DNA of 64,000 nt from an uncultured Solirubrobacterales bacterium (lineage in GTDB: Bacteria; Actinomycetota; Thermoleophilia; Solirubrobacterales; 70-9). Shown in pieces: positions 21,365 to 62,008 of this stretch. The position numbers and the translations under genes were made by a program. Location: the NCBI GenBank assembly GCA_963812905.1, contig CAWEWY010000003.1, positions 1,527,470-1,591,469 of the forward strand, read 5' to 3'. The notes below the pieces were generated by a model. It ran no database searches. It had not been told where the DNA came from and saw only the letters and a list, made by a program, of their open reading frames with translations. How positions within the stretch are numbered: the stretch's first letter is position 1; each line of letters starts with the position of its first letter.

Positions 21365-21438
<74 letters not shown>

Positions 21439-21441
21439 GGG

Positions 21442-22674
21442 CTACCGGAAAAGGCTCTGTTGAGCCGTTTCCAGCGATTGTGAGTCGTCCGCGCTCGGCT
21501 CAGATTCGACAGAAACAGGCTCTCCGCTGCCCATTGCTGCCCATTGGAGGGCTGCATCGAACTCGCGAAGCGCCACGCCGATCAGCCTCTCGCGGCGGCG
21601 CACAGCACTAGCGTAGACCTTCATCGAGAACCCCGGCTCGGTGTGCCCGAGCTGGTTCGCCACGTACACGGGGTCGTCGCCCAGGGCGAAGCGCAGGCTC
21701 GCGTAGAGGCGACGTAGCGAGTGCGGTGTCACGGCTTCGTCAATGGGCCGAAGGCCCAGCTCATCGAGCCTCTTGTTGGCCCTGCGGATCGCCGTCTTCA
21801 AGCGCCGCTCGACGTTGCTCACGCTCTGCCGCTGTCCCTCGCGGTTGCGAAACATCGGACCCTCGCTGCTGCGCAGCGTGCGGAGCTTGTAGGCGGCGAG
21901 TTCCTTGCGCAGGGCGTCGGGGAGATCGACCTGGCGGATGCCCGCCTCGGTCTTCGATTCGCCAACGGTGAGCGTCCCGCTGGCCGGATCGAAGTCGGGC
22001 CAGTCAAGGCCGCAGGTCTCGCCGTTGCGCAGGCCGGCCCCCGCCATCGTGGCGACCATCGGCCGGAGCTTGCGCGCAGCTTCGAGGAGGGAGGGCAGTT
22101 GCTCTGGCTCGACGGTCGGCCGGTTCGGCGTGCTGCGCTTGACCCGCCGCCGTCTTCCGCGTGCCGGATTGCGCGCCGCGTCGATGTGCCCGTAATCGCC
22201 GGCGTCGTCGAGGATCATCGCCAGCAAGCCGAGCGACTTGTTGATCTGGTTCGGCCCAAGCGCTCCCTCGCGCAGCTTCGCGGCCTTGTAGCGGTCCACG
22301 TCCTCCGGCCCGATCTGGTCAAGGTGCATCGAGGCGAAGTGGGGGAGTAGATGCCCGCTCAGCAGCCAGCGGTAGCTCTTGACGGTCTTCTCCCGCAACT
22401 CCGGCTCGCGGCCCTCAAGCCATTCCGAGGCGAACTCATGGAAGGTCGGCGCTTCGGCAACCTGCGGGGTCTGCGCTGGTTCGTACGGCCGCCATAGGCC
22501 GCGCTCAACGTCCGCCAGGACGTGCCGCAACTCTGCCTCGGCCCGCTTGCGGTTCCAGCCCTCCTCGGCAGTCCCGAGAGCCACATAGCGCCGCTCGCCG
22601 TAGGCGCGGAACCGGATCGCCCAGGCGCGCCCGTCCTGCGGCTCGATCACCTGCCCTGTCGCTTTGCGAGGCAT
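21442..22674 (-). CDS. int: Tyrosine recombinase / phage-type integrase
   Basis: C-terminal catalytic region …VTPHSLRRLYASL…LGHTEPGFSMKVYAS…; the stop codon is 3 nt from the tRNA 5' end. Confidence 0.9.
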   Translation of the reverse strand: MPRKATGQVIEPQDGRAWAIRFRAYGERRYVALGTAEEGWNRKRAEAELRHVLADVERGLWRPYEPAQTPQVAEAPTFHEFASEWLEGREPELREKTVKSYRWLLSGHLLPHFASMHLDQIGPEDVDRYKAAKLREGALGPNQINKSLGLLAMILDDAGDYGHIDAARNPARGRRRRVKRSTPNRPTVEPEQLPSLLEAARKLRPMVATMAGAGLRNGETCGLDWPDFDPASGTLTVGESKTEAGIRQVDLPDALRKELAAYKLRTLRSSEGPMFRNREGQRQSVSNVERRLKTAIRRANKRLDELGLRPIDEAVTPHSLRRLYASLRFALGDDPVYVANQLGHTEPGFSMKVYASAVRRRERLIGVALREFDAALQWAAMGSGEPVSVESEPSADDSQSLETAQQSLFR

Positions 22675-22680
22675 CCCTAC

Positions 22681-23067
22681 CTAAGCCGCCGAGGGCGGAA
22701 AGTTCTCCCCACGCCGCCGAATCGGAAGCAACGCCACCCGTCCCTCCGACCCCTGCGGCTGGCCCGCCCGCTCACCTGAGCGGGTGGGCGGGTCAGCCGT
22801 CGGAACCTCGCCAACCTTCCGCAGCACCCGCACTGCCACTTCGGGATCGAAGCGAAGCCGTGGCTTCGCCCCGTCGCCAAGCTTGACCGCCCCCAGCTCG
22901 ATTGCGTGGGAGTAGACCCAGGAGCGCTCGATCCCGAGCCGCCGCGCCAGCTCAGCCGCATCGACCAGCTCGCGGCTTTGAAGGCCGCGCTTTTCGAGCA
23001 GTTCGACGACCCGGCGGGCAATCGCCTCGATTGTCTGGGGATCGAGCTTGATGCGGGTGGATGCCAT
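22681..23067 (-). CDS. xis: Excisionase-family HTH DNA-binding protein
   Basis: MASTRIKLDPQTIEAIARRVVELL…LVDAAELARRLGIERSWVYSHA is a MerR/excisionase-type HTH; sits immediately upstream of int. Confidence 0.6.
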   Translation of the reverse strand: MASTRIKLDPQTIEAIARRVVELLEKRGLQSRELVDAAELARRLGIERSWVYSHAIELGAVKLGDGAKPRLRFDPEVAVRVLRKVGEVPTADPPTRSGERAGQPQGSEGRVALLPIRRRGENFPPSAA

Positions 23068-23520
23068 CTCACATCTACTGTCAAAACTGAGAGCCGTTTG
23101 CGTCGGGTGACTTTGAAAAAGTTTGCGCAGCGCCTCTCCGGCTCGCGCAATCGACACCGCTCCCGACCCGCCGCCAAACATTGCTGACGTTGCAGATCAG
23201 CAAAGTGCGGCCCAGGCATGGAACCAAGGGGTTCGTAGTGTGTCGGCCGTCGGGGCTGTGGCGTGGGGAGGGCATCTGGGACTACCTGGGGGTCTGCCTC
23301 GGGACCTCTGGCATCTGTGGGGGTAGCTGGCCTGAGTCGGTGGCTCTGGCTGCTGGCTGAATGAATCTGATCTGGACTTGCTGGCTGTCTATGGCTGGCG
23401 TTCAGCGGCTTCTCGGAGGCCGAGGCAGGGTGCGGAGCCATCCATGCGAGTAGACAACCTCGCCACCTCCCTGTGGCCTGCGCCCCGGCCCCCGAGAAGC
23501 CGCTGAACAACCTTGCCGTT

Positions 23521-23805
23521 CTAAGTGACGCCCCCGATCAGCTCGTCAAAGCGAGCAGCGGCCCTGCTGGGGGCGAGCCTCCGGCAATCGCAGGTGAGCA
23601 GCCCGTCGCGGGTCAACTCCCGCACGGCGCGCTCTACGGCGTCCTGTTCGCAACTGCGCAGGTCCGTCTCGACCCGCAGGGCAAGCTCAAGGATCGTGAG
23701 CTGCGCCGGGTGCAGGAACAAGACCTGCGTGAGGACCGAACGTTCCATGATCTCGTCCTCGTGGAAGGGCGCAGAAAGGCCCGGCCGGATATCTTCGTCG
23801 TGCAT
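23521..23805 (-). CDS. Hypothetical protein with a possible winged helix, island cargo
   Basis: …LTQVLFLHPAQLTILELALRV…AVERAVRELTRDGLL…; divergent from the XRE gene. Confidence 0.4.
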   Translation of the reverse strand: MHDEDIRPGLSAPFHEDEIMERSVLTQVLFLHPAQLTILELALRVETDLRSCEQDAVERAVRELTRDGLLTCDCRRLAPSRAAARFDELIGGVT

Positions 23806-23958
23806 GGGAGTTCATACCTCCTGTGCCATGCCCCCGGCTGTTCCACCAGCGCGGGGGCGCTTTGTCGTTGGGTCGGCGAGCCTACAGCAACTTCTGCTGA
23901 AACACAAGTGCTCAGACAGGTGGATCGAAACGCCCGCGTCTGAGAACGTGCGCAGTGG

Positions 23959-24195
23959 ATGCGCCGCTCTGATCAACCCCAGCCCGCCCTAGGCAAAGCG
24001 ATCCGCCAGCTCCGCGAAGAGCGCGGCATGACCCAGGAATCCCTCGCCCAAGAGGCTGGAGTCACGGTCGGCCACATGTCGATGATCGAACGCGGGCACT
24101 CCAATCCGACTTGGGCGACGGTCAAGGCAATCTCCTCGGCTCTAGACACATCGATGGTCGGGTTGACCGAACTCATTGATCAATTGGAGAGCTGA
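23959..24195 (+). CDS. XRE-family (Cro/CI-type HTH) transcriptional regulator
   Basis: LGKAIRQLREERGMTQESLAQEAGVTVGHMSMIERGHSNPTWATVKAISSAL. Confidence 0.8.
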   Translation: MRRSDQPQPALGKAIRQLREERGMTQESLAQEAGVTVGHMSMIERGHSNPTWATVKAISSALDTSMVGLTELIDQLES

Positions 24196-24314
24196 CTAGC
24201 CTTGATGGGCACGCTACCGGAGTCTCGGAACTCCATGCGCGATCACTGCCCAGTTTCATCGTCGCTCCTATGTACATAGATTTCCCTAGAGTTCATCTCT
24301 AGGAGGTAGGCGCT

Positions 24315-26330
24315 ATGGACGATGTGCGCTTCGACCCAGTTTGGCGGCGAATCCGTCGCGATAGCTACACCAAAAAGCTAGAGGGGCGATTCCTGGATCG
24401 ATTCACTCGCCTTGAGCACTTGGTCAACTGGGGCTCTCTGTCCTGGCTAAACCCCCATGCAACGGCTACAAAGCAAGCGCACCATCTTGGCACCGAACAC
24501 AACGCATCACGTTTTCTGGCAGCCGGGGAACGTCGTACACAACATCGGCCATCCTTGCGAGCTGCGGCGCACGTCATGCATTGGGGCCATCTTCCGCTGA
24601 GCTATCAAGGCGCCGAGGCCATACTCAGAGCGGCTCACGTGGAGGAGAAAACCCGGCAGACCCTCGAAGAAGTAGTGAACCAAGTCGTTTCTTTTGGCCA
24701 GCTCCAGTGCGCAGAGGACGACCATCCTGGGCACTGCGTGGAGATGCTGCTCGCTGGTGAACGACCCTTTGAGCTTTATCGATGGTTCTCGGCATGGATC
24801 GTTTCGGAGGAGTGGAGTCGTCTGTGGCCCGCCATCTGTGAAGCGGAGCAAGCATTGGGTGCCGATACTCCAGACGAGACCAAAGTAAAAGGCAGCCTTG
24901 TGAACTCTCTGGTTTGCCGCGATTATCGCGGCAATGAAGTTCTGACCGCGTGTAACCGGGCCGACTACGTGCCCCGAGACCTACTGCAGTGTGGCACTGC
25001 TTGGCTGACCCTTGATCCAGACGTTCTGTGGGAGCGGGATCCGATAGGACCAGAAGCGGCAGATGAGTGGGCGTTGATTGACTCTGCTCGGTCTTATCTA
25101 GAGCAGCGATTCTATGCAACGCCAACGTCCCTACTAATGCACACTTTGATTGCCAGACTCATCGGCAACGATTTCGCGCGTACCCCTATCACGCTTGACG
25201 ATCTTCGGGAACTTCTTCGACAGGAGGAAGGAGATGCGTACTTCGAGCACCATCTTCGCCCCAAATATCGAAAGACACTTCGCGATCTAAAGGAGAATGC
25301 ACATCGAGATTTCGAGCGTGAGTGGATCGAGGTTGGAGTATTCCAGCAGGTTAGCCTTCCGGCGGGATCTCGCTTTGCCGCAGAGGACTTCCTGACCGAG
25401 CGGACGGGGAAGCGGCGCGTCATTTACCCGTTCGTCGATAACTACAGCGTATTCGTCGAGTTCCAAGAGGTGAATCCATTCGCCGAACTCATGGCAGGCC
25501 ATAATCGCCGTTACGGAAACGTCTATTGCCATCAGCGTCGACTAGAGACGCCCGAAAAGCTTGGACCTATGCTGAGCGTGTTGGCCAAGACATCGGACTG
25601 GATTCAGCGTGCTCACGCCGGCGAGGTCGAGAGCGCGATTTTGGCTTGGATTTTGGGCGCCAAAGTCGAGCAGCGATCGAATCTCTTGTTCACCGCATGT
25701 CAGGCTGTAGCTGTTGAAGACATTGACGTAGTTCGAGCGGGATTGAAGGCCCTACGCGGCCGCTCATCGTTGGTCGAACTCAACGAGCACAGCGACGTGG
25801 CGCTGAAAGCAGATCTTCTGTCAGATGCCGCATTCGAGCAACCTATCCAAAATGTTGGTGAGTTCCTCCTTAGGATGCCGTGGAGGGCCATTAAAATCTC
25901 TGATAGCCGAGATATTTTGCGTCATCTCGCTGATAAAGCCCTTGAAAAGGCCAAAGCGAAAAAAGGTGGAGATCGTGGGCCGGCGTTGGAGCTTGCCGTT
26001 GCTATCGATCAGCTACTTTCAGATGACGATTGCAGCCATAGGTTTTGCATTTTCAATGCAACGGAGATATCAAACGAAAGGCGCCCAATACGTGAGTGGG
26101 ACGTTATCCGTCTGGACTTGCTTCGGGATGGCCGGTGGACCTTGACGGCAGTTGAGTGTTCGGTGAATCGAACCAAAAAAAAGGACGACAAAGATGTCTT
26201 GGCGCTCCAAGCGCTACAGGATGCGGTCCGAACACGCTATAGCGATCTTGTCTCATACACCACATCGTTTGCAACCGTCGAGGATGACGGACTGGCTTAT
26301 GAAGATGCGGGCCGGAGCTACACGCCTTGA
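24315..26330 (+). CDS. 671-aa island cargo protein; N-terminus has degenerate dGTPase/SAMHD1-type HD-domain motifs, remainder unrecognised
   Basis: AGGAGG RBS 9 nt upstream; AT-richer than the core; ordered motif series FTRLEHLVNWG / NPHATATKQAHHLGTEH / AAHVMHWGHLPLSY parallels SAMHD1 FQRLRYIKQLG / FPGASHNRFEHSLGV / AGLCHDLGHGPFSH, but the HD dyad is replaced (MH/HW). Confidence 0.7.
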   Translation: MDDVRFDPVWRRIRRDSYTKKLEGRFLDRFTRLEHLVNWGSLSWLNPHATATKQAHHLGTEHNASRFLAAGERRTQHRPSLRAAAHVMHWGHLPLSYQGAEAILRAAHVEEKTRQTLEEVVNQVVSFGQLQCAEDDHPGHCVEMLLAGERPFELYRWFSAWIVSEEWSRLWPAICEAEQALGADTPDETKVKGSLVNSLVCRDYRGNEVLTACNRADYVPRDLLQCGTAWLTLDPDVLWERDPIGPEAADEWALIDSARSYLEQRFYATPTSLLMHTLIARLIGNDFARTPITLDDLRELLRQEEGDAYFEHHLRPKYRKTLRDLKENAHRDFEREWIEVGVFQQVSLPAGSRFAAEDFLTERTGKRRVIYPFVDNYSVFVEFQEVNPFAELMAGHNRRYGNVYCHQRRLETPEKLGPMLSVLAKTSDWIQRAHAGEVESAILAWILGAKVEQRSNLLFTACQAVAVEDIDVVRAGLKALRGRSSLVELNEHSDVALKADLLSDAAFEQPIQNVGEFLLRMPWRAIKISDSRDILRHLADKALEKAKAKKGGDRGPALELAVAIDQLLSDDDCSHRFCIFNATEISNERRPIREWDVIRLDLLRDGRWTLTAVECSVNRTKKKDDKDVLALQALQDAVRTRYSDLVSYTTSFATVEDDGLAYEDAGRSYTP

Positions 26331-26414: not shown

Positions 26415-27230
26415 CTACAAAGACGGTAGGCTATTCAAGCTTACAATTTCGTCGCTGAGCGTAACATGGGCTTCGGATGAGTTCCCAGCGTCAGGAGAAA
26501 GAAATCCAAGTTTGGGATTGGTGCCAGCAGAGTGTGCTGCCGAAAACAATTCGACGCCAAGCCATGAGATACCAAATACAAAACCACCGACGGGGACCTG
26601 TCGACCAATTGACTCACTCAGTATCTCTGGGGGACCGGCCCTATAGAAGTCCTGTAGCAGTCCTTCTCTAATCAAGCCAAGTATGCAGTGCTCGAAAATT
26701 GGCTCCCAGGTTTCATCTGAGCCGACCTCCATGCCGGCGAACCATGCGTCCCAGGGCACAAAGAAGCGACCTTCCTCCCTGAGAGCGACGGCTGCGGCGA
26801 AGTTGTGCCGGAGTTGGGAGGTTCGCACCAGACGCCTCGCATGCACATACAGGAAATAATGGCTGCGTATTTGATAAGTCGACAGTCGACCAACGAGCGC
26901 TGCGAGTGTTGCCCCTCGATCGTCTCTTGTAACTTGCGTCTTAGACGAAGCGAGAATCCCCCCAAAGTACTCGCAGCTTAGCTCGTCATCGCAATAGGAG
27001 CCCTCCTCAAGAACTTCCCGAAGAACACGGGGAGGTACTCCACCGGGTCGATTAAGGCCATCGTCACCAAGCTTTAGCTTGGCATTCTCAAATATCCGCT
27101 GGATGTTGGCGACGCGCTGCTCTGCCCAATGCTGAAGTTCATCTCCGAGGTAATCAGCGGTAGGTCCCAAGATCTTCAGCGCTATTGGCGCGGAAGTTCC
27201 TAGAACGACCAGTCCCTCTGGGTCGACCAT
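26415..27230 (-). CDS. Abi-alpha (DUF4393)-like abortive-infection family protein
   Basis: N-terminal pattern …LGPTADYLGDELQHWAEQRVANIQRIFENAKLKL…GVPPRVLREVLEEGSYCDDELSCEYFGGILA matches, from memory, the Abi_alpha signature (…VPPKVL..LLE.AS.EDDEELQ..WA.LLA); AT-rich. Confidence 0.55.
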   Translation of the reverse strand: MVDPEGLVVLGTSAPIALKILGPTADYLGDELQHWAEQRVANIQRIFENAKLKLGDDGLNRPGGVPPRVLREVLEEGSYCDDELSCEYFGGILASSKTQVTRDDRGATLAALVGRLSTYQIRSHYFLYVHARRLVRTSQLRHNFAAAVALREEGRFFVPWDAWFAGMEVGSDETWEPIFEHCILGLIREGLLQDFYRAGPPEILSESIGRQVPVGGFVFGISWLGVELFSAAHSAGTNPKLGFLSPDAGNSSEAHVTLSDEIVSLNSLPSL

Positions 27231-27422
27231 GTGCGGAGCCTAGACGACGTTGACCGACCCTTGTGTGGCTCAGTCCGGAGCCGGAGGAAATTCATTGGGC
27301 AGCAGCGTGATTTCGCTGCCCAAATCAAAATGAATCCCACCTAAAACGGCGAGAAATGACGAACCTAAGCGCCACTCTCTTTCCGCTCTACAGACACGAA
27401 AACTCCAACTTCTCCAGTCGCT

Positions 27423-27463
<41 letters not shown>

Positions 27464-27502
27464 ATGCCGACATTGTCTCTCAGACGAGCCGTCCAATGAG
27501 TG

Positions 27503-27871
27503 CTAGGTCTGAAGCCGGTTGTGGGCGACTTGGTAGACGGTGGGAGCGTTCGAGTCACGCGGATGATGGCGGACGCCGAAGGCGGCGTAGACGAGTCGCA
27601 ACTTGCCGCTACGGCGCTCGATGCGGAAGACCATGCCGAACTTTCCGTCAGGGGGTGGCAGATAGACCTTGACGCAATGCGCGAGCTGGGTTCCGTCGGT
27701 GCCTTCCTTGTCGCAGGCAAGAAGGACATCTACCGGCACGCCGTTCTGTTCGTACTCGCTCCGGGTTGCGCGGGCGACCTTCTGCCCTGCATCGCTGGCT
27801 CGCCTCAAATCCTCAGCGAAGGCAGCATCGTCGAACAGGGCCGTTGTCCGACCAGACCGCTTGTCGCTCAC
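27503..27871 (-). CDS. Mini-element 1, gene B: 122-aa protein, possibly a RelE/ParE-fold toxin
   Basis: …CVKVYLPPPDGKFGMVFRIERRSGKLRLVYAAFGVRHHP… has a C-terminal beta pattern reminiscent of RelE/ParE; start overlaps the stop of gene A. Confidence 0.5.
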   Translation of the reverse strand: MSDKRSGRTTALFDDAAFAEDLRRASDAGQKVARATRSEYEQNGVPVDVLLACDKEGTDGTQLAHCVKVYLPPPDGKFGMVFRIERRSGKLRLVYAAFGVRHHPRDSNAPTVYQVAHNRLQT

Positions 27872-27874
27872 CGG

Positions 27875-28120
27875 CTACCCCTCGCCGTCGGGGGGCTGCA
27901 CTGGGCCGAACTCGGCCTCGAACTCAGCCAAGGTCGCCGGCTCGGTGCCAAGGCGCTTGCGGATCGCCTCGAACGAGGTATCCGGAACAAGTGTGAGCGA
28001 TCCGTCCGGGCGCTCCTCGGTGACGCGGTACTCGCCCACCCGGTCGTCGCTGAGCTCGACGTGAGCATGCAACTCCATGCGGTGGATGATGGCAGAAGCC
28101 GACCGTGCTGTTGAAGGCAT
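27875..28120 (-). CDS. Mini-element 1, gene A: 81-aa protein, putative antitoxin partner
   Basis: MPSTARSASAIIHRMELHAHVELSDDRVGEYRVTEERPDGSLTLVPDTSFEAIRKRLGTEPATLAEFEAEFGPV…; first gene of a two-gene operon. Confidence 0.5.
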   Translation of the reverse strand: MPSTARSASAIIHRMELHAHVELSDDRVGEYRVTEERPDGSLTLVPDTSFEAIRKRLGTEPATLAEFEAEFGPVQPPDGEG

Positions 28121-28453
28121 CCCTGCATTTCCTTTCGCTGCGTTTTCGCTTCCATGTCTGAACTCCGCTGTCTTGACGGCAGTCGCTTTCTATCGCCACA
28201 GGGATCCAGATTCGCAAGTGCCGCCCGAAGGCGGCACCGCATCTCAGCCCGCCGAAACGAACTGAGGGGGTGCAGACAGAATACCTACAACCCTCGCCTG
28301 GTGCCTGCCTCGCGGCGTCGAGGACTGATTGGGCAGCGGAGCTTCTCGCTGCCCAAACCGGGATAGAAGCACGGCAATCCACAAGATTCCGCGGTCGCAC
28401 TCGGAATCGTCAAAACCTTACCCAGAGCCGAAAACGCGCGCGCCTCCACCTCG

Positions 28454-28497
<44 letters not shown>

Positions 28498-28535
28498 GCC
28501 GACATTGTCTCTCAGACGAGCCATCCAATGAAGCG

Positions 28536-28904
28536 CTAGGTCTGAAGCCGGTCGTGGGCGACTTGGTAGACGGTGGGAGCGTTCGAGCCACGCGGATGAT
28601 GGCGCACGCCGAAGGCGGCGTAGGCGAGTCGCAACTTGCCGTTGCGGCGCTCGATACGAAAGACCATGCCGAACTTTCCGTCAGGAGGCGGCAGGTAGAC
28701 CTTGACGCAATGCGCGAGTTGGGTTCCGTCTGCGCCTTCCTCGTCGCAGGCAAGAAGGACATCCACCGGCACGCCGTCCTGTTCGTACGCGCTCCGGGTC
28801 GCGTGGGCGACCTCCTGCCCCGCATCGCTGGCTCGCCTCAAATCCTCAGCGAAGGCAGCATCGTCGAACAGGGCCGTTGTCCGACCAGACCGCTTGTCGC
28901 TCAC
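28536..28904 (-). CDS. Mini-element 2, gene B': paralog of 27503-27871
   Basis: 10 substitutions in 122 aa relative to copy 1. Confidence 0.5.
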   Translation of the reverse strand: MSDKRSGRTTALFDDAAFAEDLRRASDAGQEVAHATRSAYEQDGVPVDVLLACDEEGADGTQLAHCVKVYLPPPDGKFGMVFRIERRNGKLRLAYAAFGVRHHPRGSNAPTVYQVAHDRLQT

Positions 28905-28907
28905 CGG

Positions 28908-29153
28908 CTACCCCTCGCCGTCGGGGGGCTGCACTGGGCCGAACTCGGCCTCGAACTCAGCCAAGGTCGCCGGCTCGGTGCCAAGGCGCTTGCGGATCGC
29001 CTCGAACGACGTATCCGGAACGAGGGTGAGCGATCCGTCCGGGCGCTCCTCGGTGACGCGGTACTCGCCCACCCGGTCGTCGCTGAGCTCGACATGAGCA
29101 TGCAACTCCATGCGGTGGATGATGGCAGAAGCCGACCGTGCTGTTGAAGGCAT
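28908..29153 (-). CDS. Mini-element 2, gene A': identical paralog of 27875-28120
   Basis: All 81 residues identical to copy 1; begins at the internal Met of track ORF 28908..29252. Confidence 0.5.
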   Translation of the reverse strand: MPSTARSASAIIHRMELHAHVELSDDRVGEYRVTEERPDGSLTLVPDTSFEAIRKRLGTEPATLAEFEAEFGPVQPPDGEG

Positions 29154-29487
29154 CCCTGCATTTCCTCTCGCTGCGTTTTCGCTTCCATGTCTGAACTCCG
29201 CTGTCTTCACGGCCAAGCCACTTTCTATCGCCACAGGGATCCAGATTCGCAAGTGCCGCCCAAAGGCGACACCGCATCTCAGCCGCCGAAACGGACTGAG
29301 GGGGTGCAGACAGAATACCTACAACCCTCGCCCGGTGCCTGCCTCGAGGCGTCGAGGACTGATTGGGCAGCAGAGCTTTCTCGCTGCCCAAACCGGGGTA
29401 GAAGCCCGGCAATCCACAGGAATCCGGGATCGCACTCGGAATCGTGTAATCCTTACCCAGAGCCGAAAAAGCGCACCCATCCGTCTC

Positions 29488-29528
<41 letters not shown>

Positions 29529-29548
29529 TGGACGGCTAAATCGTAGAG

Positions 29549-30025
29549 CTATCGGCCTGCAGCATCGAGGTCCTCCAGATCTGCGAGGTCGCGGGTTCTG
29601 CCGGCGGCGCTCTTCATGGCCTTGAGATCCTCGATCGAGCAGACGGCGACCTCAATGCCGAGGATCTCTGCCTCCGTCGAACGAGCATGCAATTCGTCAT
29701 AGGTGGGAACCCCGTCGAGACCCTGAACGATGTCCAGGCGACCGAGGTCGGTCTCGATGGCAACCTGTTCGCCGCTCGCGAGTTGGCCCGCGATTGACAG
29801 TTGTCTGCTGAGGAAGGATTCGCCTGCATGCACATGTCCGTGGATTGCCTCGGCAACAGCTGCGAGACGTTCGAGATTCTCGGCATCTGAGGCGACGACA
29901 ATGTCCACGTCCTTCGTCCCACGAACCACTCCCCACGCTCCAAGGGCAAGACCGCCGACCACGACGAACCTCACTTCCGCCTCCGTCAAACGACGGAGGA
30001 TCTGATCGAAGGCCGGGGCGCTCAC
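29549..30025 (-). CDS. Nucleotidyltransferase-fold protein (minimal NTase, MNT/AbiEii-like)
   Basis: …EVRFVVVGGLALGAWGVVRGTKDVDIVVASD… fits the hGGxA…G..R.T.DhDh NTase signature; moderate GC. Confidence 0.55.
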   Translation of the reverse strand: MSAPAFDQILRRLTEAEVRFVVVGGLALGAWGVVRGTKDVDIVVASDAENLERLAAVAEAIHGHVHAGESFLSRQLSIAGQLASGEQVAIETDLGRLDIVQGLDGVPTYDELHARSTEAEILGIEVAVCSIEDLKAMKSAAGRTRDLADLEDLDAAGR

Positions 30026-30234
30026 CCTCGGCGAGCAGAGCCGGCGAACTGAAGCAGTTGGTGACTCAGGGCGATGGTCTCTGCCAGATTCACGTCCATG
30101 GAACGCCGAGCGTCAGCCCTTAGTCGCTGTACTCGGACTGCCTCGGCAGCAAAGGCTGCGTTCTTAGGCGCCCTTCCAGCCTGATCGGTGGATGCCATTC
30201 GAACACCGTAGCGGAGTGCCGGACGGCTCATCAA
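30022..30234 (-). CDS. Small 70-aa protein upstream of the NTase gene with overlapping stop/start; possible partner
   Basis: Translationally coupled to the NTase gene; no recognisable motif. Confidence 0.3.
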   Translation of the reverse strand: MMSRPALRYGVRMASTDQAGRAPKNAAFAAEAVRVQRLRADARRSMDVNLAETIALSHQLLQFAGSARRG

Positions 30235-58063: not shown

Positions 58064-59511
58064 ATGGCGACGCAGACGGTGCAGGCGGTCGATCACAAGC
58101 TCCTCGCCGCGGGCGAGTGGCTGGAGACCGGCGAGTGGGGCGAGGTCAAGAGTCCCTACGACGGGACCGTCGTCGGCCGGGTCGCCGAAGGCGACGCCGC
58201 GCTCGTCGACCGCGCCGCCAAGGCCGCGCAGGAGGCCTTCGAGTCGGCCGACTTCCCCCAGCACGAGCGCGCCGCCGTGCTCGACCGCGCCGCCGAGCTG
58301 GTCGGCGAACGGGTCGAGGACCTGGCCCTGACGATCGCCGCCGAGGCCGGCAAGCCGCTGAAGACGGCACGGGTCGAGGCGGCTCGCAGCGTCGACACCC
58401 TCACCTTCTCCGCCACCGAGGCGCGCAAGCTGACCGGCGGCACGGTGCCGATGGAGGCCTCGCCGGCGGGCGCCGGCAAGCTCGGCGTGATGCTGCGCGT
58501 CCCCTACGGCGTCGTCGGCGCGATCAGCCCCTTCAACTTCCCGCTCAACCTGGTCGCCCACAAGCTCGGCCCGGCGATCGCCGCCGGCAACGCGATCGTG
58601 CTCAAGCCGGCCGGGCAGACGCCGATCTCGGCCCTGAAGCTGGCCGAGATCCTGGTCGAGGCCGGCCTGCCGCAGGGCTGGCTCAGCGTCATCCCCGGGC
58701 CCCGGCAGGGAGGTCGGCAACGCGATCGTCGAGCACGAGCTGACCCGCGCGCTCACCTTCACCGGCTCGGCCGGAGTCGGCTGGGGCATCCGCAGCCGCG
58801 TTCCACACAAGAAGGTCAACCTGGAGCTGGGCTCAAACGCACCGCTGATCGTCCACGCCGACGGCGACTGGGAGACGGCGGCGGACAAGGCGAAGCTGCA
58901 CGCCTTCTCGCACGCCGGGCAGAGCTGCATCTCGATCCAGCGCGTCCTCGTGCACGAGGACGTCGCCGACGCGTTCATCCGAGCGCTTCGTCGCCAACGC
59001 CGAGGCGCTGCGGGTCGGCGACCCGCTCGATCCCGAGACCGACGTCGGGCCGCTGATCTCGCCCGGCGATCGCGACCGGGTCAAGGAGTGGGTCGACGAG
59101 GCGGTCGCGGCCGGAGCCGAGCTGCTCACCGGCGGCGAGCTCGTCGACGAGGGCCGCTGCCTCGCCCCGACCCTGCTCGGCTCGCCGCCGCGCGAGACCA
59201 AGGTCTGGTGCGAGGAGATCTTCGGCCCGGTGGCGACGATCGACCGCTACTCGGATTTCGGCGAGGCGCTGCGGATGGCCAACGACTCCAAGTTCGGCCT
59301 TCAGGCCGGAGTCTTCACCCGCGACGTCGGCCGCGGGCTGGAGGCGGCCAACACGCTCGAGTTCGGCGGCGTCCTGATCAACGAGGTCCCCACCTTCCGC
59401 GCCGACCAGATGCCCTACGGCGGCGTCAAGGACTCCGGCAACACCCGCGAGGGCCCCGCCTTCGCAGTCTACGAGCTAACCGAGGAGCGCTTCGTCACCC
59501 TGCAGGGTTGA
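58064..59511 (+). CDS. Aldehyde dehydrogenase-family protein (frame changes in the middle third)
   Basis: …GAISPFNFPLNLVAHKLGPAIAAGNAIVLKPA…; C-terminus …GGVLINEVPTFRADQMPYGGVKDSGNTREGP…. Confidence 0.75.
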
Positions 59512-62008
59512 GGCTCTCCGAACTCTCCTCGGGCTTGGTTTCGGCCTCGAAGGTCCTAAAGGGCACCGAGGCGACGATACAGAGGGCCGCACGGAGCAGC
59601 AGTTCCTGCGCCTGGCGCGGCTCGCCAACGATCCGGCCCCGAAATCGTGGGTTGTAGCGCGCCCGAGAGAGGCTGACCATGCGGAGGTCGTCGCGCTGCA
59701 GGCAATGTGCGATCTTCCGCTCGGTGACCACACGCCGTTTTCCGCTTTTGCCTCTGTACACGTACTCGGGCACTGTCTCGCAGAGTTGTTCGCGTGCATA
59801 TTTGATTGTCGGATTGCTGGTCGCGATTTGTCCCAAGAACTCATTGGACATCCAGATCCAGCAATCTGGCAACGAGGGCTTGAGCGGGCTTGAGCCCTTC
59901 AGGCTGAGCCAACTGCGGCCGACGTTGCGTAGTTTCGTGAGTGATTTCTTTTCTATGTCGTCGTCAACACGTTTGATCCCGTCGGGAGCATGGAAGATCC
60001 TGACCGTGTCACCAAAGCGGCCGCTTGTCCATTTGGTGCACTCCTGCTTTAGGTCGGTCCACAGGCTCTCCGGATCGCGTGGCCCTTCCATCTCCCCGGA
60101 GCTCTCCGATTGGCTGGGGTGCTGCAGGCCGGCGTCAATGCCGCGGATGATTGTCTCCATGTCCCCGGGGAGAACGATGCAGATTCTTCCCCGAGCGCTG
60201 GAATTTTCGACCAGTGCCCGTCGCGTGCGCACGTTTTCCACGTACTCGACGATGCTGTCCTCGTCGTGGTAGAGCGCCGATGCGTGCTGCTGCAAAGCCC
60301 TGTCGCTGAGAAGGAAGGTCGGCGGCTCGTTTCGAAGGATGAAGAGAAGACCCTGGCTCGTTCCCGCGGCCCTTGAGAGGAGATCGTCGATGGATCGCTG
60401 AAAGAGTGTGCTCCGCAAGTTCCCGTCTTGCTGTACCTCGAGGCGCTCCGGCACTGTCAGCCGGCCCTCTCTTTTCATGGTGCTCACACGCTTTCTCAGG
60501 TCTACTCCGCTCGGCTTGTGGACCAGTTCGTCGTGGTCTAGCCAGGTAGCGGCAAGGTCGAGACGGTGCTTCTTCGCCGCGGCGCCGGCCAGCCGGCCGA
60601 TGGTTCGGGCGATTTCCGGTACCCAGAAATCCCGCTGGGCGCGTTCGACCGGTCCCTGTGGACTGTCGGCAAGGAAATGACCCAGGCCACCGATCGAGAG
60701 CATGTTGATTCCGTCTGGGGGGCCCGAGTCGAGCACGCTCCGCGGTTGCACTATCGGATCGTTGCCACCGACCACAAAGAGCATACGTTGGCGGAAGGCG
60801 ACCAGACGACTCTGGAAGCTTCCGCGATACTCCTGCTCGAATACCTCGTAGAAGGTGCGCTTCAGATAGAGGAAGAGATACAGATTTATGCCGGCTAGTA
60901 GGCCGTCGGCGGATTGTTGGAAGCGCCAGTCCATCATCGCGTCGTCAAGCTCGTAACGGAGCGAGTGCAGGACGGTTTGCCACTCTTCCGGATCGGCAAA
61001 TGCCGTCGGTGCCAGTTCTCGCATCGCTCCTCCGGAGAGCAGCGTCGAACAGGATGAGACGAGGAATGGCCAGGACATGAACACCGACTGCGCCGTGAAG
61101 CCCCCGAGGCTGTAGCCGATTACATGCAGCTCGGGCTCCGCGTCGGCGTCGAACTTGTCCCCGTTGCGTCGTGCGCGCGGGCCGAGTGCCCTGCGGAGGG
61201 AGGCGATCGCTTGTTTGAAGGCGGTCAGGTCCGGCTCTCTGCACATCCTTGGTGAGCTATCGCGGTGTTCGTTGATTACTTGCTTCGACGCATCGAAGTG
61301 GGCTTTCCACTCCCGCTGCATCTCTCGCGCGAGCAGCCCCGATTCCAAACGACTTCCGGACACGGAGTCGTTCTCGAGCAGCAGTCCCGAACCCGAGACA
61401 CAACGGTACGTCGAGTGGTTGCCAATGCAGCTCAGCAACCACCTTGTCTCGATCATGTAACGGAGGAATTGACGGAACAGGTGAAGACCGTCCCACAGGT
61501 AGTGATCGAGCGGTGTCTCGGAGAGGCCGGGGTAAGAACAGCGGCTGAGGTGTCCCGGGAACGGTCGCACCAGGCACACGGTGTTCTCGTCCTGGGCGAT
61601 CAGGTGTGAGCCGATTTCGTAATAGAGCCCCAATTTTCGCAGCTCATTAAGGCCATTGTGCATCAGGAAGATGCGGCTGACCTTCTTTCTTTTCGGGTTC
61701 GGGTGGGAAAGAAGGCGAAGCGTGTGGAAGCTCTCGACCGGGCCCATGTTTACCTGATCCTGGCCGAGGCGGTGAAGGCCGTGGATCGGTGCCGAGGGGA
61801 AACGGAGAACCCGCTCGCGAATGGGAGTGGCAAGCTCCCTTCCATCCTCGCCATTCTCAATATTGCGATCGAGAATTCCCAGATCGGCGTCTACGTCCCA
61901 CCCTTCCAAGCCGAGCCTCGGTTTTGGCCAGGAGTCGTCGCTGAGAGCCAGCTCCGCATCCCGCTCCCCCATCCTGATCTCCCGTGCAGCTTTGAACGAA
62001 ACTTTCAA
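59495..62008 (-). CDS. 837-aa alpha/beta-hydrolase-fold protein (GYSLGG nucleophile elbow) with a large uncharacterised C-terminal region; AT-richer than the flanks
   Basis: Uninterrupted ORF; GGGAGA RBS; …RIFLMHNGLNE… and …HVIGYSLGGFTAQSVF… are hydrolase-fold motifs. Confidence 0.65.
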   Translation of the reverse strand: MKVSFKAAREIRMGERDAELALSDDSWPKPRLGLEGWDVDADLGILDRNIENGEDGRELATPIRERVLRFPSAPIHGLHRLGQDQVNMGPVESFHTLRLLSHPNPKRKKVSRIFLMHNGLNELRKLGLYYEIGSHLIAQDENTVCLVRPFPGHLSRCSYPGLSETPLDHYLWDGLHLFRQFLRYMIETRWLLSCIGNHSTYRCVSGSGLLLENDSVSGSRLESGLLAREMQREWKAHFDASKQVINEHRDSSPRMCREPDLTAFKQAIASLRRALGPRARRNGDKFDADAEPELHVIGYSLGGFTAQSVFMSWPFLVSSCSTLLSGGAMRELAPTAFADPEEWQTVLHSLRYELDDAMMDWRFQQSADGLLAGINLYLFLYLKRTFYEVFEQEYRGSFQSRLVAFRQRMLFVVGGNDPIVQPRSVLDSGPPDGINMLSIGGLGHFLADSPQGPVERAQRDFWVPEIARTIGRLAGAAAKKHRLDLAATWLDHDELVHKPSGVDLRKRVSTMKREGRLTVPERLEVQQDGNLRSTLFQRSIDDLLSRAAGTSQGLLFILRNEPPTFLLSDRALQQHASALYHDEDSIVEYVENVRTRRALVENSSARGRICIVLPGDMETIIRGIDAGLQHPSQSESSGEMEGPRDPESLWTDLKQECTKWTSGRFGDTVRIFHAPDGIKRVDDDIEKKSLTKLRNVGRSWLSLKGSSPLKPSLPDCWIWMSNEFLGQIATSNPTIKYAREQLCETVPEYVYRGKSGKRRVVTERKIAHCLQRDDLRMVSLSRARYNPRFRGRIVGEPRQAQELLLRAALCIVASVPFRTFEAETKPEESSESLNPAG

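Follow-up and report, generated by a model that had tools for sequence, protein, structure and literature searches.

The question raised by this locus is what function may be served by a protein of 671 amino acids (aa) which belongs to no catalogued family and is encoded, in DNA of foreign composition, on a 6-kb element integrated at a tRNA-Arg gene. The element lies in what we call the window, i.e. the whole stretch of 64,000 nucleotides that was analysed (contig CAWEWY010000003.1, positions 1,527,470 to 1,591,469, from an uncultured Solirubrobacterales bacterium), and all coordinates refer to it. The original prediction, made from the sequence alone, described two open reading frames (ORFs) on the plus strand, 23959-24195 (78 aa) and 24315-26330 (671 aa), as a regulator and a protein with a degenerate dGTPase/SAMHD1-like HD domain, and proposed them as a candidate undescribed defence unit. 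Both ORFs are as described, and the AGGAGG ribosome-binding site attributed to the larger one is found at 24301-24306 (+), separated by 8 nt from the ATG start codon at 24315. Our answer is that the 671-aa gene is a self-contained cargo of the element, most likely encoding a putative single-protein immune nuclease that acts against phages or invading DNA, a reading to which we assign a probability of about 0.5. Its product combines a degenerate SAMHD1-like HD domain, a middle domain and a PD-(D/E)xK nuclease domain.

Searches with the protein itself gave very little. Pfam, PADLOC and PHROGs contained no match at E ≤ 1 and NCBIfam a single one at chance level, and the best E-value was 0.29 when PDB sequences were searched with phmmer; the claim that the gene is undescribed thus holds for every defence and family library tried. 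Relatives collected from protein databases, from which residue counts are given below for 97 full-length sequences, were represented by two profiles, A1 for the close family and A2 for 67 diverse members of the wider family. Among PDB sequences A1 found nothing, and A2 matched 2hek (E = 3.9e-26), 2q14 (8.4e-19), 9mr6 (9.2e-19), EF1143 (5.6e-16) and human SAMHD1 (~2e-14), which bears out the profile-level similarity to HD-domain hydrolases that had been anticipated. The only recurrent Pfam match among the members is PF01966 HD, and it is weak (9 of 67, best E = 4.3e-4), no member reaching the Pfam threshold. In the structure model, where the confidence score (pLDDT) is 93.5 and the whole chain is confidently folded, residues 1 to ~335 (24315-25319, +) form an all-helical HD fold of the SAMHD1/dNTPase type, with the HD-associated C-terminal lobe present. 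Comparison of this domain with known proteins returned two figures for each, given here without labels: 25.0 and 334 for fungal SAMHD1 (9mr6), 24.3 and 302 for Aquifex 2hek, 22.3 and 345 for Caenorhabditis elegans SAMHD1, 21.5 and 294 for BT4208, 21.4 and 354 for human SAMHD1, 21.3 and 308 for EF1143, and 14-16 and 217-237 for dGTPases including CloA. We show in this way that the N-terminal 335 residues are homologous to SAMHD1-type deoxynucleoside triphosphate (dNTP) triphosphohydrolases and have the same fold.

The three motifs on which the prediction was built are present to the letter (F29-T-R-L-E-H-L-V-N-W-G40, P47-H-A-T...A55-H-H-L-G59 and A84-A-H-V-M-H-W-G-H-L-P-L-S-Y97), and a fourth one typical of the family, N214-R-A-D-Y-V-P-R-D222, had been overlooked. 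Alignment with the active enzymes places K53-Q-A-H56-H-L-G59 (24471-24491, +) on R-F-E-H-S-L-G, with the first metal-ligand His kept; M88-H89-W90-G91-H92-L-P-L-S-Y97 (24576-24605, +) on H-D-L-G-H-G-P-F-S-H, with both residues of the His-Asp dyad replaced; and N214-R-A-D217-Y-V-P-R221-D222 (24954-24980, +) on D-R/K-x-D-Y-x-x-R-D, with the Asp that is the fourth ligand changed to Asn. The loss of the dyad is therefore real, as had been claimed, although its register is M88-H89 and not H89-W90. The metal ligands of SAMHD1 are established as H167, H206, D207 and D311, and their counterparts here are H56, M88, H89 and N214: three of the four members of the H...HD...D tetrad are replaced (His by Met88, Asp by His89, Asp by Asn214) and H56 alone is kept, so that the canonical HD metal centre cannot form. 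The substitutions are a property of the family. The dyad Asp position is occupied by His in 66 of 97 relatives and otherwise by Gly, Ser, Gln or Ala, never by Asp (0/97), the dyad His position holds His in 12/97, and position 214 holds Asn, Asp or Arg in 44, 30 and 13 of the 97, respectively.

Other positions of the same domain are nearly or fully invariant: K53 (92 of 97), H56 (94), G59 (95), G91 (97), H92 (96), P94 (90) and Y/F218 (96), with D217, R221 and D222 found in 97/97 each. Four of the kept residues, K53, H92, Y218 and D222, align with R164, H210, Y315 and D319, the substrate contacts of SAMHD1. The ratio of nonsynonymous to synonymous substitution rates (dN/dS) between the window copy and a 90%-identical copy at a second locus (L021) is 0.049 over 383 codons, at a dS of ~1.07 that is near saturation, and the family is under strong purifying selection. 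Given these invariant residues and this ratio, the N-terminal domain is constrained rather than decaying. One way to account for the constraint is a bifunctional enzyme, in which the HD-like domain would be catalytic through a rebuilt His-rich metal centre (H56, H86, H89, H92, N214/D217) and would hydrolyse dNTPs or phosphoesters beside the activity of the nuclease. What speaks for it is that in the close subfamily H48, H56, H57, H86 and H92 are invariant and H89 nearly so, that His is so frequent at the dyad Asp position and Asp still the fourth ligand in 30/97, and that the pocket-aligned K53, H92, Y218 and D222 are conserved in a domain under strong purifying selection. However, the conservation of H48, H57 and H86 does not extend to the wider family, Asp never occurs at the dyad position and His only in 12/97 at its partner, no member reaches the Pfam HD threshold, and mutation of the dyad is known to abolish the dNTPase activity of SAMHD1. 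We consider such an enzyme possible, though rather unlikely.

The remaining ~550 residues had been taken as matching nothing recognizable, which is right for one part of them only. Residues 337-550 (25323-25964, +) form an alpha/beta plus helical middle domain that is confidently modelled and for which no informative structural match was identified. Residues 553-671 (25971-26327, +) adopt a PD-(D/E)xK, or restriction-endonuclease-like, fold, with E559, E594, D596, E614 and K623 as candidate catalytic residues. The domain shows the alpha-beta-beta-beta-alpha-beta core of the superfamily, and the assignment is fitted by the order of secondary structures between residues 554 and 664: helix 554-567 (carrying E559), strand 575-585, strand 591-602 (E594, D596), strand 608-615 (E614), helix 621-638 (K623) and strands 645-656 and 659-664. 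A profile of the C-terminal half found nothing useful among PDB sequences. The candidate residues are conserved to different extents, E559 in 97/97 relatives, D596 in 96/97, E594 in 93/97, K623 in 76/97 and E614 in 75/97, and the domain itself is conserved throughout the family. With this domain present, cleavage of nucleic acids becomes a likelier mechanism than depletion of nucleotides. The catalytic constellation is non-canonical and we infer the nuclease activity from sequence and modelled fold; K623, on the helix that follows E614, is a candidate stand-in for the missing Lys of the motif.

As to the distribution of the protein, a word-indexed search of 5.8 billion proteins delineated the close family, 43 clusters of sequences nearly all 660-680 aa in length, 36-90% identical and without Pfam domains, whose genome matches are solely Solirubrobacterales or Actinomycetes metagenome-assembled genomes (MAGs). 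With phmmer run exhaustively over 1.84 billion representatives, 109 matches were obtained, including a distant set of 640-720 aa at 21-32% identity. This wider family reaches archaea (Methanosarcina, with MSKOL_2625, Thermoplasmatota and Halobacteriota) and non-actinobacterial bacteria (Chloroflexi, Peptococcaceae); some of its members are labelled 'HD superfamily phosphohydrolase' in IMG. The full-length architecture persists between Actinomycetota and archaea although identity falls to ~20%, and each of the two terminal domains retains invariant residues; this architecture is shared within a rare family whose members come from archaea, from Actinomycetota of soils and from a small number of other bacteria. 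No relatives were found when IMG/VR was scanned with profile A1, tblastn found no match to the family in collections of plasmids and phages, and a structure search of BFVD gave HD phosphohydrolases of giant viruses and weak matches to nucleases, with no full-length analogue.

Truncated or frameshifted copies are common (loci L007, L008, L021/L022 and L034, proteins P0016 and P0020). A rare and patchy distribution combined with frequent damaged copies is typical of defence genes, and we therefore count it in favour of the immune reading. The same copies, together with the loss of the canonical HD ligands, could instead be taken to mean that the gene is a decaying remnant or a passive, inactivated decoy without activity, the second of which had been suggested at the outset. 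But the window copy is intact and confidently folded over its whole length, the dN/dS of 0.05 and the nuclease domain conserved across the family do not fit decay, and neither does an architecture that has been retained, with its invariant residues, between Actinomycetota and archaea. A pseudogene or passive decoy is thus contradicted by conservation and purifying selection, and we hold it to be highly improbable. As a separate observation, the similarity of the L021 copy to that of the window ends suddenly past residue ~387, in the manner of a deletion or recombination breakpoint.

We then turn to the neighbourhoods of the homologues. Among 38 loci examined no neighbour family is conserved, which makes the 671-aa gene a stand-alone unit. 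In about 11 of about 19 independent loci it has integrase, relaxase, prophage, restriction-modification (R-M) or OLD-family neighbours, and at least three are singletons among housekeeping genes (raw counts, without a background model). Thus homologues occur mostly in mobile-element or defence contexts, as the original prediction required. The element of the window is found again at L021/L022, with an integrase 83% and an XRE regulator 79% identical and a large gene truncated after about residue 387. Elsewhere the homologue adjoins an integrase fragment and a helix-turn-helix (HTH) gene (L001), or MmeI_Mtase, Eco57I and ResIII genes with an integrase (L011); it lies at the edge of a prophage-like block of ~20 small co-oriented ORFs (L012), near an rve fragment (L014), near an OLD-like TOPRIM/AAA_15 ATPase, GIY-YIG and DUF6308 (L015), beside a type III-like R-M system with N6_N4 methyltransferase and ResIII (L018), alongside Replic_Relax and DUF5131 (L004/L005/L030), or within 1 kb of an integrase (L023, L034). 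At L017 an excisionase-like HTH_17 gene, an integrase and several XRE genes are found upstream and a PIN pair downstream. The gene is hence carried by unrelated element backbones with different integrases, and at the MAG loci its GC content at third codon positions (GC3) is lower than that of the flanking genes.

These neighbourhoods also bear on the possibility that the protein has nothing to do with immunity, and is a nuclease that serves the mobile element (in excision, replication or competition between elements) or the DNA or nucleotide metabolism or repair of the host. L009/L010, L013 and L020 are set among housekeeping genes without defence neighbours, L016 lies beside NUDIX, adenylate kinase, thymidylate synthase and dCTP deaminase genes, and the archaeal relatives are chromosomal. 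Against this stand the scarcity and patchiness of the close family, with 43 clusters in 5.8 billion proteins, the frequency of pseudogenes, the foreign composition, the variety of backbones and integrases, the R-M and OLD-family neighbours, and the absence of the gene from sequenced phages, plasmids and IMG/VR contigs. We regard a role outside immunity as unlikely.

Three further neighbourhoods are recorded for their own sake. In Methanosarcina sp. Kolksee, MSKOL_2625 is preceded upstream by genes for a NACHT-HEAT (STAND-type) protein of 1147 aa and for an Exo_endo_phos nuclease (L019, 5295-8738). At L016 (5433-9071) the homologue is truncated and lies ~3 kb from the nucleotide-metabolism cluster mentioned above, which may have come from a phage or may have a bearing on the sensing of dNTPs. 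And the same flavin-reductase gene adjoins the homologue in several unrelated contigs (L001, L009/L010/L029, L025, L031, L032), which suggests either that this place is a hotspot of repeated insertion or that the gene has been inherited vertically there in one clade.

The original prediction had treated the 671-aa gene and the smaller ORF as a two-gene unit. The 78-aa product (23959-24195, +) is indeed a Cro/CI-type HTH regulator of the XRE family (Pfam HTH_3, E = 1.3e-14), and the PADLOC models that it matches, at 3e-14 to 7e-10, are HTH_VI, capH and R-M control proteins. The explanation to be weighed here is that of a regulator-effector or toxin-antitoxin-like pair, in which XRE would be the dedicated repressor or antitoxin of the 671-aa protein. 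It could draw on the arrangement in the window, XRE being 119 nt upstream on the same strand and preceded by an imperfect inverted repeat (23905-23950, with two arms of 13 nt that are 85% complementary, immediately before the XRE start) that may be an operator, on the resemblance to R-M control proteins and CapH, and on the adjacency kept in L021/L022. But the latter are the same mobile element, as the 83% identity of their integrase indicates, and this is the only place where adjacency is kept; at L017 a related XRE (57% identical) lies ~3.3 kb upstream, on the opposite strand and beyond the integrase, and at the other loci, about 30, none is beside the gene. With XRE absent or displaced everywhere except in the sister element, it was rejected as a conserved partner; a conserved pairing is largely refuted, and a dedicated two-gene unit appears to us decidedly unlikely. 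We read XRE as the element's own regulator, a component of its regulatory module, which may also control the nuclease gene.

The prediction itself named two outcomes that would have spoken against it, namely the lack of any profile-level similarity to HD-domain hydrolases and homologues lying mainly outside mobile or defence contexts. Similarity to these hydrolases was found and the homologues lie mostly in such contexts, so that it survives on both counts: its observation is confirmed and its interpretation partly supported. Several results nevertheless weigh against the view that the 671-aa protein is a single-protein immune nuclease with a regulatory HD-like domain. Neither the query nor any of 10 distant relatives matched PADLOC 2.0 at E ≤ 1, dGTPase models included. 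The position two residues after E614, where Lys is canonical, is Ser, Ala or Thr, and E614 itself is Ala or Gly in ~20% of relatives; for both reasons nuclease activity is not assured. The histidines H48, H57, H86 and H89 gained by the close subfamily could mean that the metal site has been rebuilt and is not dead. The homologue at L009/L010/L029 is in a housekeeping setting, between the nuo operon and a flavin reductase with serS, and those at L013 and the archaeal L020 are singletons among housekeeping genes. Finally, ligand sensing and oligomerisation, on which the mechanism depends, are things that we purely infer.

That mechanism would run as follows. The former catalytic pocket would no longer hydrolyse dNTPs; instead the pocket, or allosteric interfaces like those of SAMHD1, would bind a nucleotide (from a dNTP pool shifted by infection, or a modified one) or nucleic acid. 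Binding would entail an oligomeric or conformational change, as in the tetramerisation of SAMHD1, and the change would assemble the nuclease domains and license the cutting of phage DNA, of host DNA or of both. The XRE protein might delay expression in the manner of an R-M control protein, remaining outside the system itself. A more specific version, which we advance tentatively and well short of even odds, is that a pseudo-enzyme with the SAMHD1 fold has been repurposed as an immune receptor, whose pocket would bind dNTPs or phage-modified nucleotides, or bait phage inhibitors of dNTPases, and in which ligand-driven oligomerisation would switch on the fused nuclease. The domain may in that case be a selectively maintained bait.

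How this compares with known systems depends on the domain considered. To our knowledge the SAMHD1/dGTPase antiviral module, from bacteria to humans, always acts by destroying dNTPs. In SAMHD1-type dNTPases (human SAMHD1, EF1143 of Enterococcus, Aquifex 2hek, Bacteroides BT4208) and in anti-phage dGTPases the dyad and the fourth Asp that are replaced here are in place; the 671-aa protein has in addition 340 residues, including the nuclease domain, that are extra to SAMHD1 and the dGTPases, and unlike in anti-phage dGTPases its likely effector activity would be the cleavage of nucleic acids and not the depletion of nucleotides. Clover, which is said to pair CloA with a second gene, differs in that the 671-aa protein is without the catalytic dyad, is encoded without a partner gene and has a nuclease of its own. 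According to the title of PDB entry 9p8s, CloA is a dNTP triphosphohydrolase, and coordination of this dNTPase system by activating and inhibiting nucleotide signals has been described (10.1101/2025.07.09.663793). If the pocket of the 671-aa protein senses dNTP pools, there would be a link with this mode of control. In a survey of dGTPase-domain fusions, the accessible part names SAM, CARD, death, TIR, NLR and SIR2 partners and no nuclease (Nat Commun 2026, PMC13519002); as stated there, an annotated dGTPase domain was required, and the 671-aa family is without one. The likeness is that SAMHD1/dGTPase domains are recurrently joined to immune modules; the difference is that in those fusions the dGTPase is the proposed effector, and in the 671-aa protein it is probably the sensor.

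In its proposed logic the protein comes nearest to Shedu, to the Clover CloA system and to Can2 and Card1, where a CARF domain is combined with a PD-(D/E)xK nuclease. But in Can2, Card1 and Can1, which are activated by cyclic oligoadenylates and belong to type III CRISPR systems, CARF is the sensor, in place of the degenerate HD/SAMHD1 fold; there is no sequence similarity with the 671-aa protein, and the latter has the Lys of its (D/E)xK motif off the canonical position. No CRISPR, cas or cyclase genes were found in the neighbourhood of the gene in the window. Shedu (SduA, DUF4263) relies on one protein as its immune nuclease, under N-terminal sensor domains of diverse kinds (10.1101/2023.08.10.552793), and 'HD domain', 'SAMHD1' and 'phosphohydrolase' are absent from the main text of that paper. 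It is similar in being a single gene, with a C-terminal PD-(D/E)xK core presumably regulated by the N-terminal part and with a proposed activation coupled to oligomerisation; in contrast, the middle domain of ~210 residues is peculiar to the 671-aa family. Membership in Shedu was considered and rejected: DUF4263 is absent from the best 25 of the 32 Pfam families matched with the 67 members, and neither the query nor 10 relatives matched PADLOC.

Literature searches for a defence protein joining an HD-like to a PD-(D/E)xK domain found no description. Both folds and the sensor-nuclease logic are known and the combination is new; apparently new as well would be the demotion of the SAMHD1 fold from effector to regulator. 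If our interpretation is true, a single-protein immune nuclease that senses nucleotide pools would be common to bacteria and archaea, reversing every described immune use of the SAMHD1 fold, and this fold would prove recyclable as a sensor, like the CARF or SAVED domains. It would add a single-gene defence candidate for poorly studied soil Actinomycetota and for archaea. PADLOC 2.0 and NCBIfam hold no model that recognizes the family, and its escape from these two and from Pfam would show how much defence-gene diversity is missed by current pipelines.

The other genes of the element complete the picture. The convergent 271-aa gene (26415-27230, -) lies 84 nt downstream of the 671-aa gene, the spacing having been put at 85 bp; its convergent orientation stands, and its naming as Abi-alpha-like is not supported. 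At E ≤ 1 the gene itself matches neither Abi_alpha (PF14337) nor any other Pfam family, none of its 672 homologues has a Pfam domain among the 120 matches listed, and no PDB sequence is matched by its family. The label was rejected since just 1 of 31 homologues matches Abi_alpha, at E = 0.013, there is no PDB match, and the gene is never beside the large gene elsewhere; its absence from all other loci that carry the 671-aa gene also eliminates it as a conserved partner.

The left boundary of the island, and the target of integration, is a tRNA-Arg(CCT) gene (21365-21438, -; ARAGORN, and Rfam tRNA at 71.6 bits). A 44-nt attachment (att) repeat, one of four copies of direct-repeat family D3, overlaps the 5' half of this gene (21399-21442), and a second copy, 93% identical, marks the right end of the 6.0-kb element bearing the 671-aa gene (27422-27465). 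Between the two are found, in order, the genes for a 410-aa tyrosine integrase (21442-22674, -; Pfam Phage_integrase E = 4e-13, Phage_int_SAM_3 E = 9.5e-9), for a 166-aa protein that may be an excisionase or HTH protein (22681-23181, -; weak matches of both kinds), and for a conserved 94-aa element protein of no assigned function (23521-23805, -; relatives in L017, L021, L022 and L027), followed by the XRE, 671-aa and 271-aa genes. In the sister element L022, the copies of the integrase and of the 166-aa gene are 83% and 74% identical, respectively. The att repeat thus corresponds to the 5' half of the tRNA gene, and the integrase gene abuts the tRNA 5' end; the usual arrangement at tRNA sites is a duplication of the 3' end. 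Apart from the tRNA, an Rfam search of the island gave nothing; a promoter scan found none, and the terminator-like matches were unconvincing.

The cargo had been called AT-rich, and rightly so. The GC content of the window is ~0.70-0.74, with a trough of 0.53-0.64 at 24-30 kb, and within 24-27 kb it is 0.53-0.58 as compared with ~0.70-0.74 in the flanks. The 671-aa and 271-aa genes have GC3 values of 0.57 and 0.53, respectively, against 0.84 for the integrase, which makes both genes compositionally foreign even inside their own element; neighbouring host genes have values of 0.86-0.91.

To the right of the 6-kb element, further copies of the 44-nt att repeat are present at 28454-28497 and 29489-29532. 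They belong to two tandem units of ~1033 bp (27422-29532), 84-100% identical and each flanked by the tRNA-derived repeat, in which a 122-aa ORF is accompanied by an ORF of 81 or 114 aa, all on the minus strand and without match in Pfam, PHROGs or PADLOC. The units resemble mini-elements or satellites, att-flanked but lacking an integrase, that have been stacked at one tRNA site, and possibly carry a small toxin-antitoxin-like pair. In two related elements a small ORF is located within ~20 nt downstream of the 671-aa homologue (L005, 11984-12226; L030, 4830-5072), and it has weak similarity to the 81-aa ORF of the window (27875-28120; 28% identity, E ~1e-5). Just past the last att copy (29549-30234) there is a 158-aa nucleotidyltransferase of the AbiEii/DUF2204 type (Pfam AbiEii 5.4e-6, PADLOC AbiEii 1.3e-6), overlapped upstream by a 70-aa ORF without family match, and the two could form a type IV toxin-antitoxin or Abi pair of minimal size. 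At 59-62 kb the GC content is low for a second time (0.60-0.66), and the 837-aa ORF encoded there (59495-62008, -), which has only a weak alpha/beta-hydrolase match (E = 8e-4), may be a further horizontally acquired gene.

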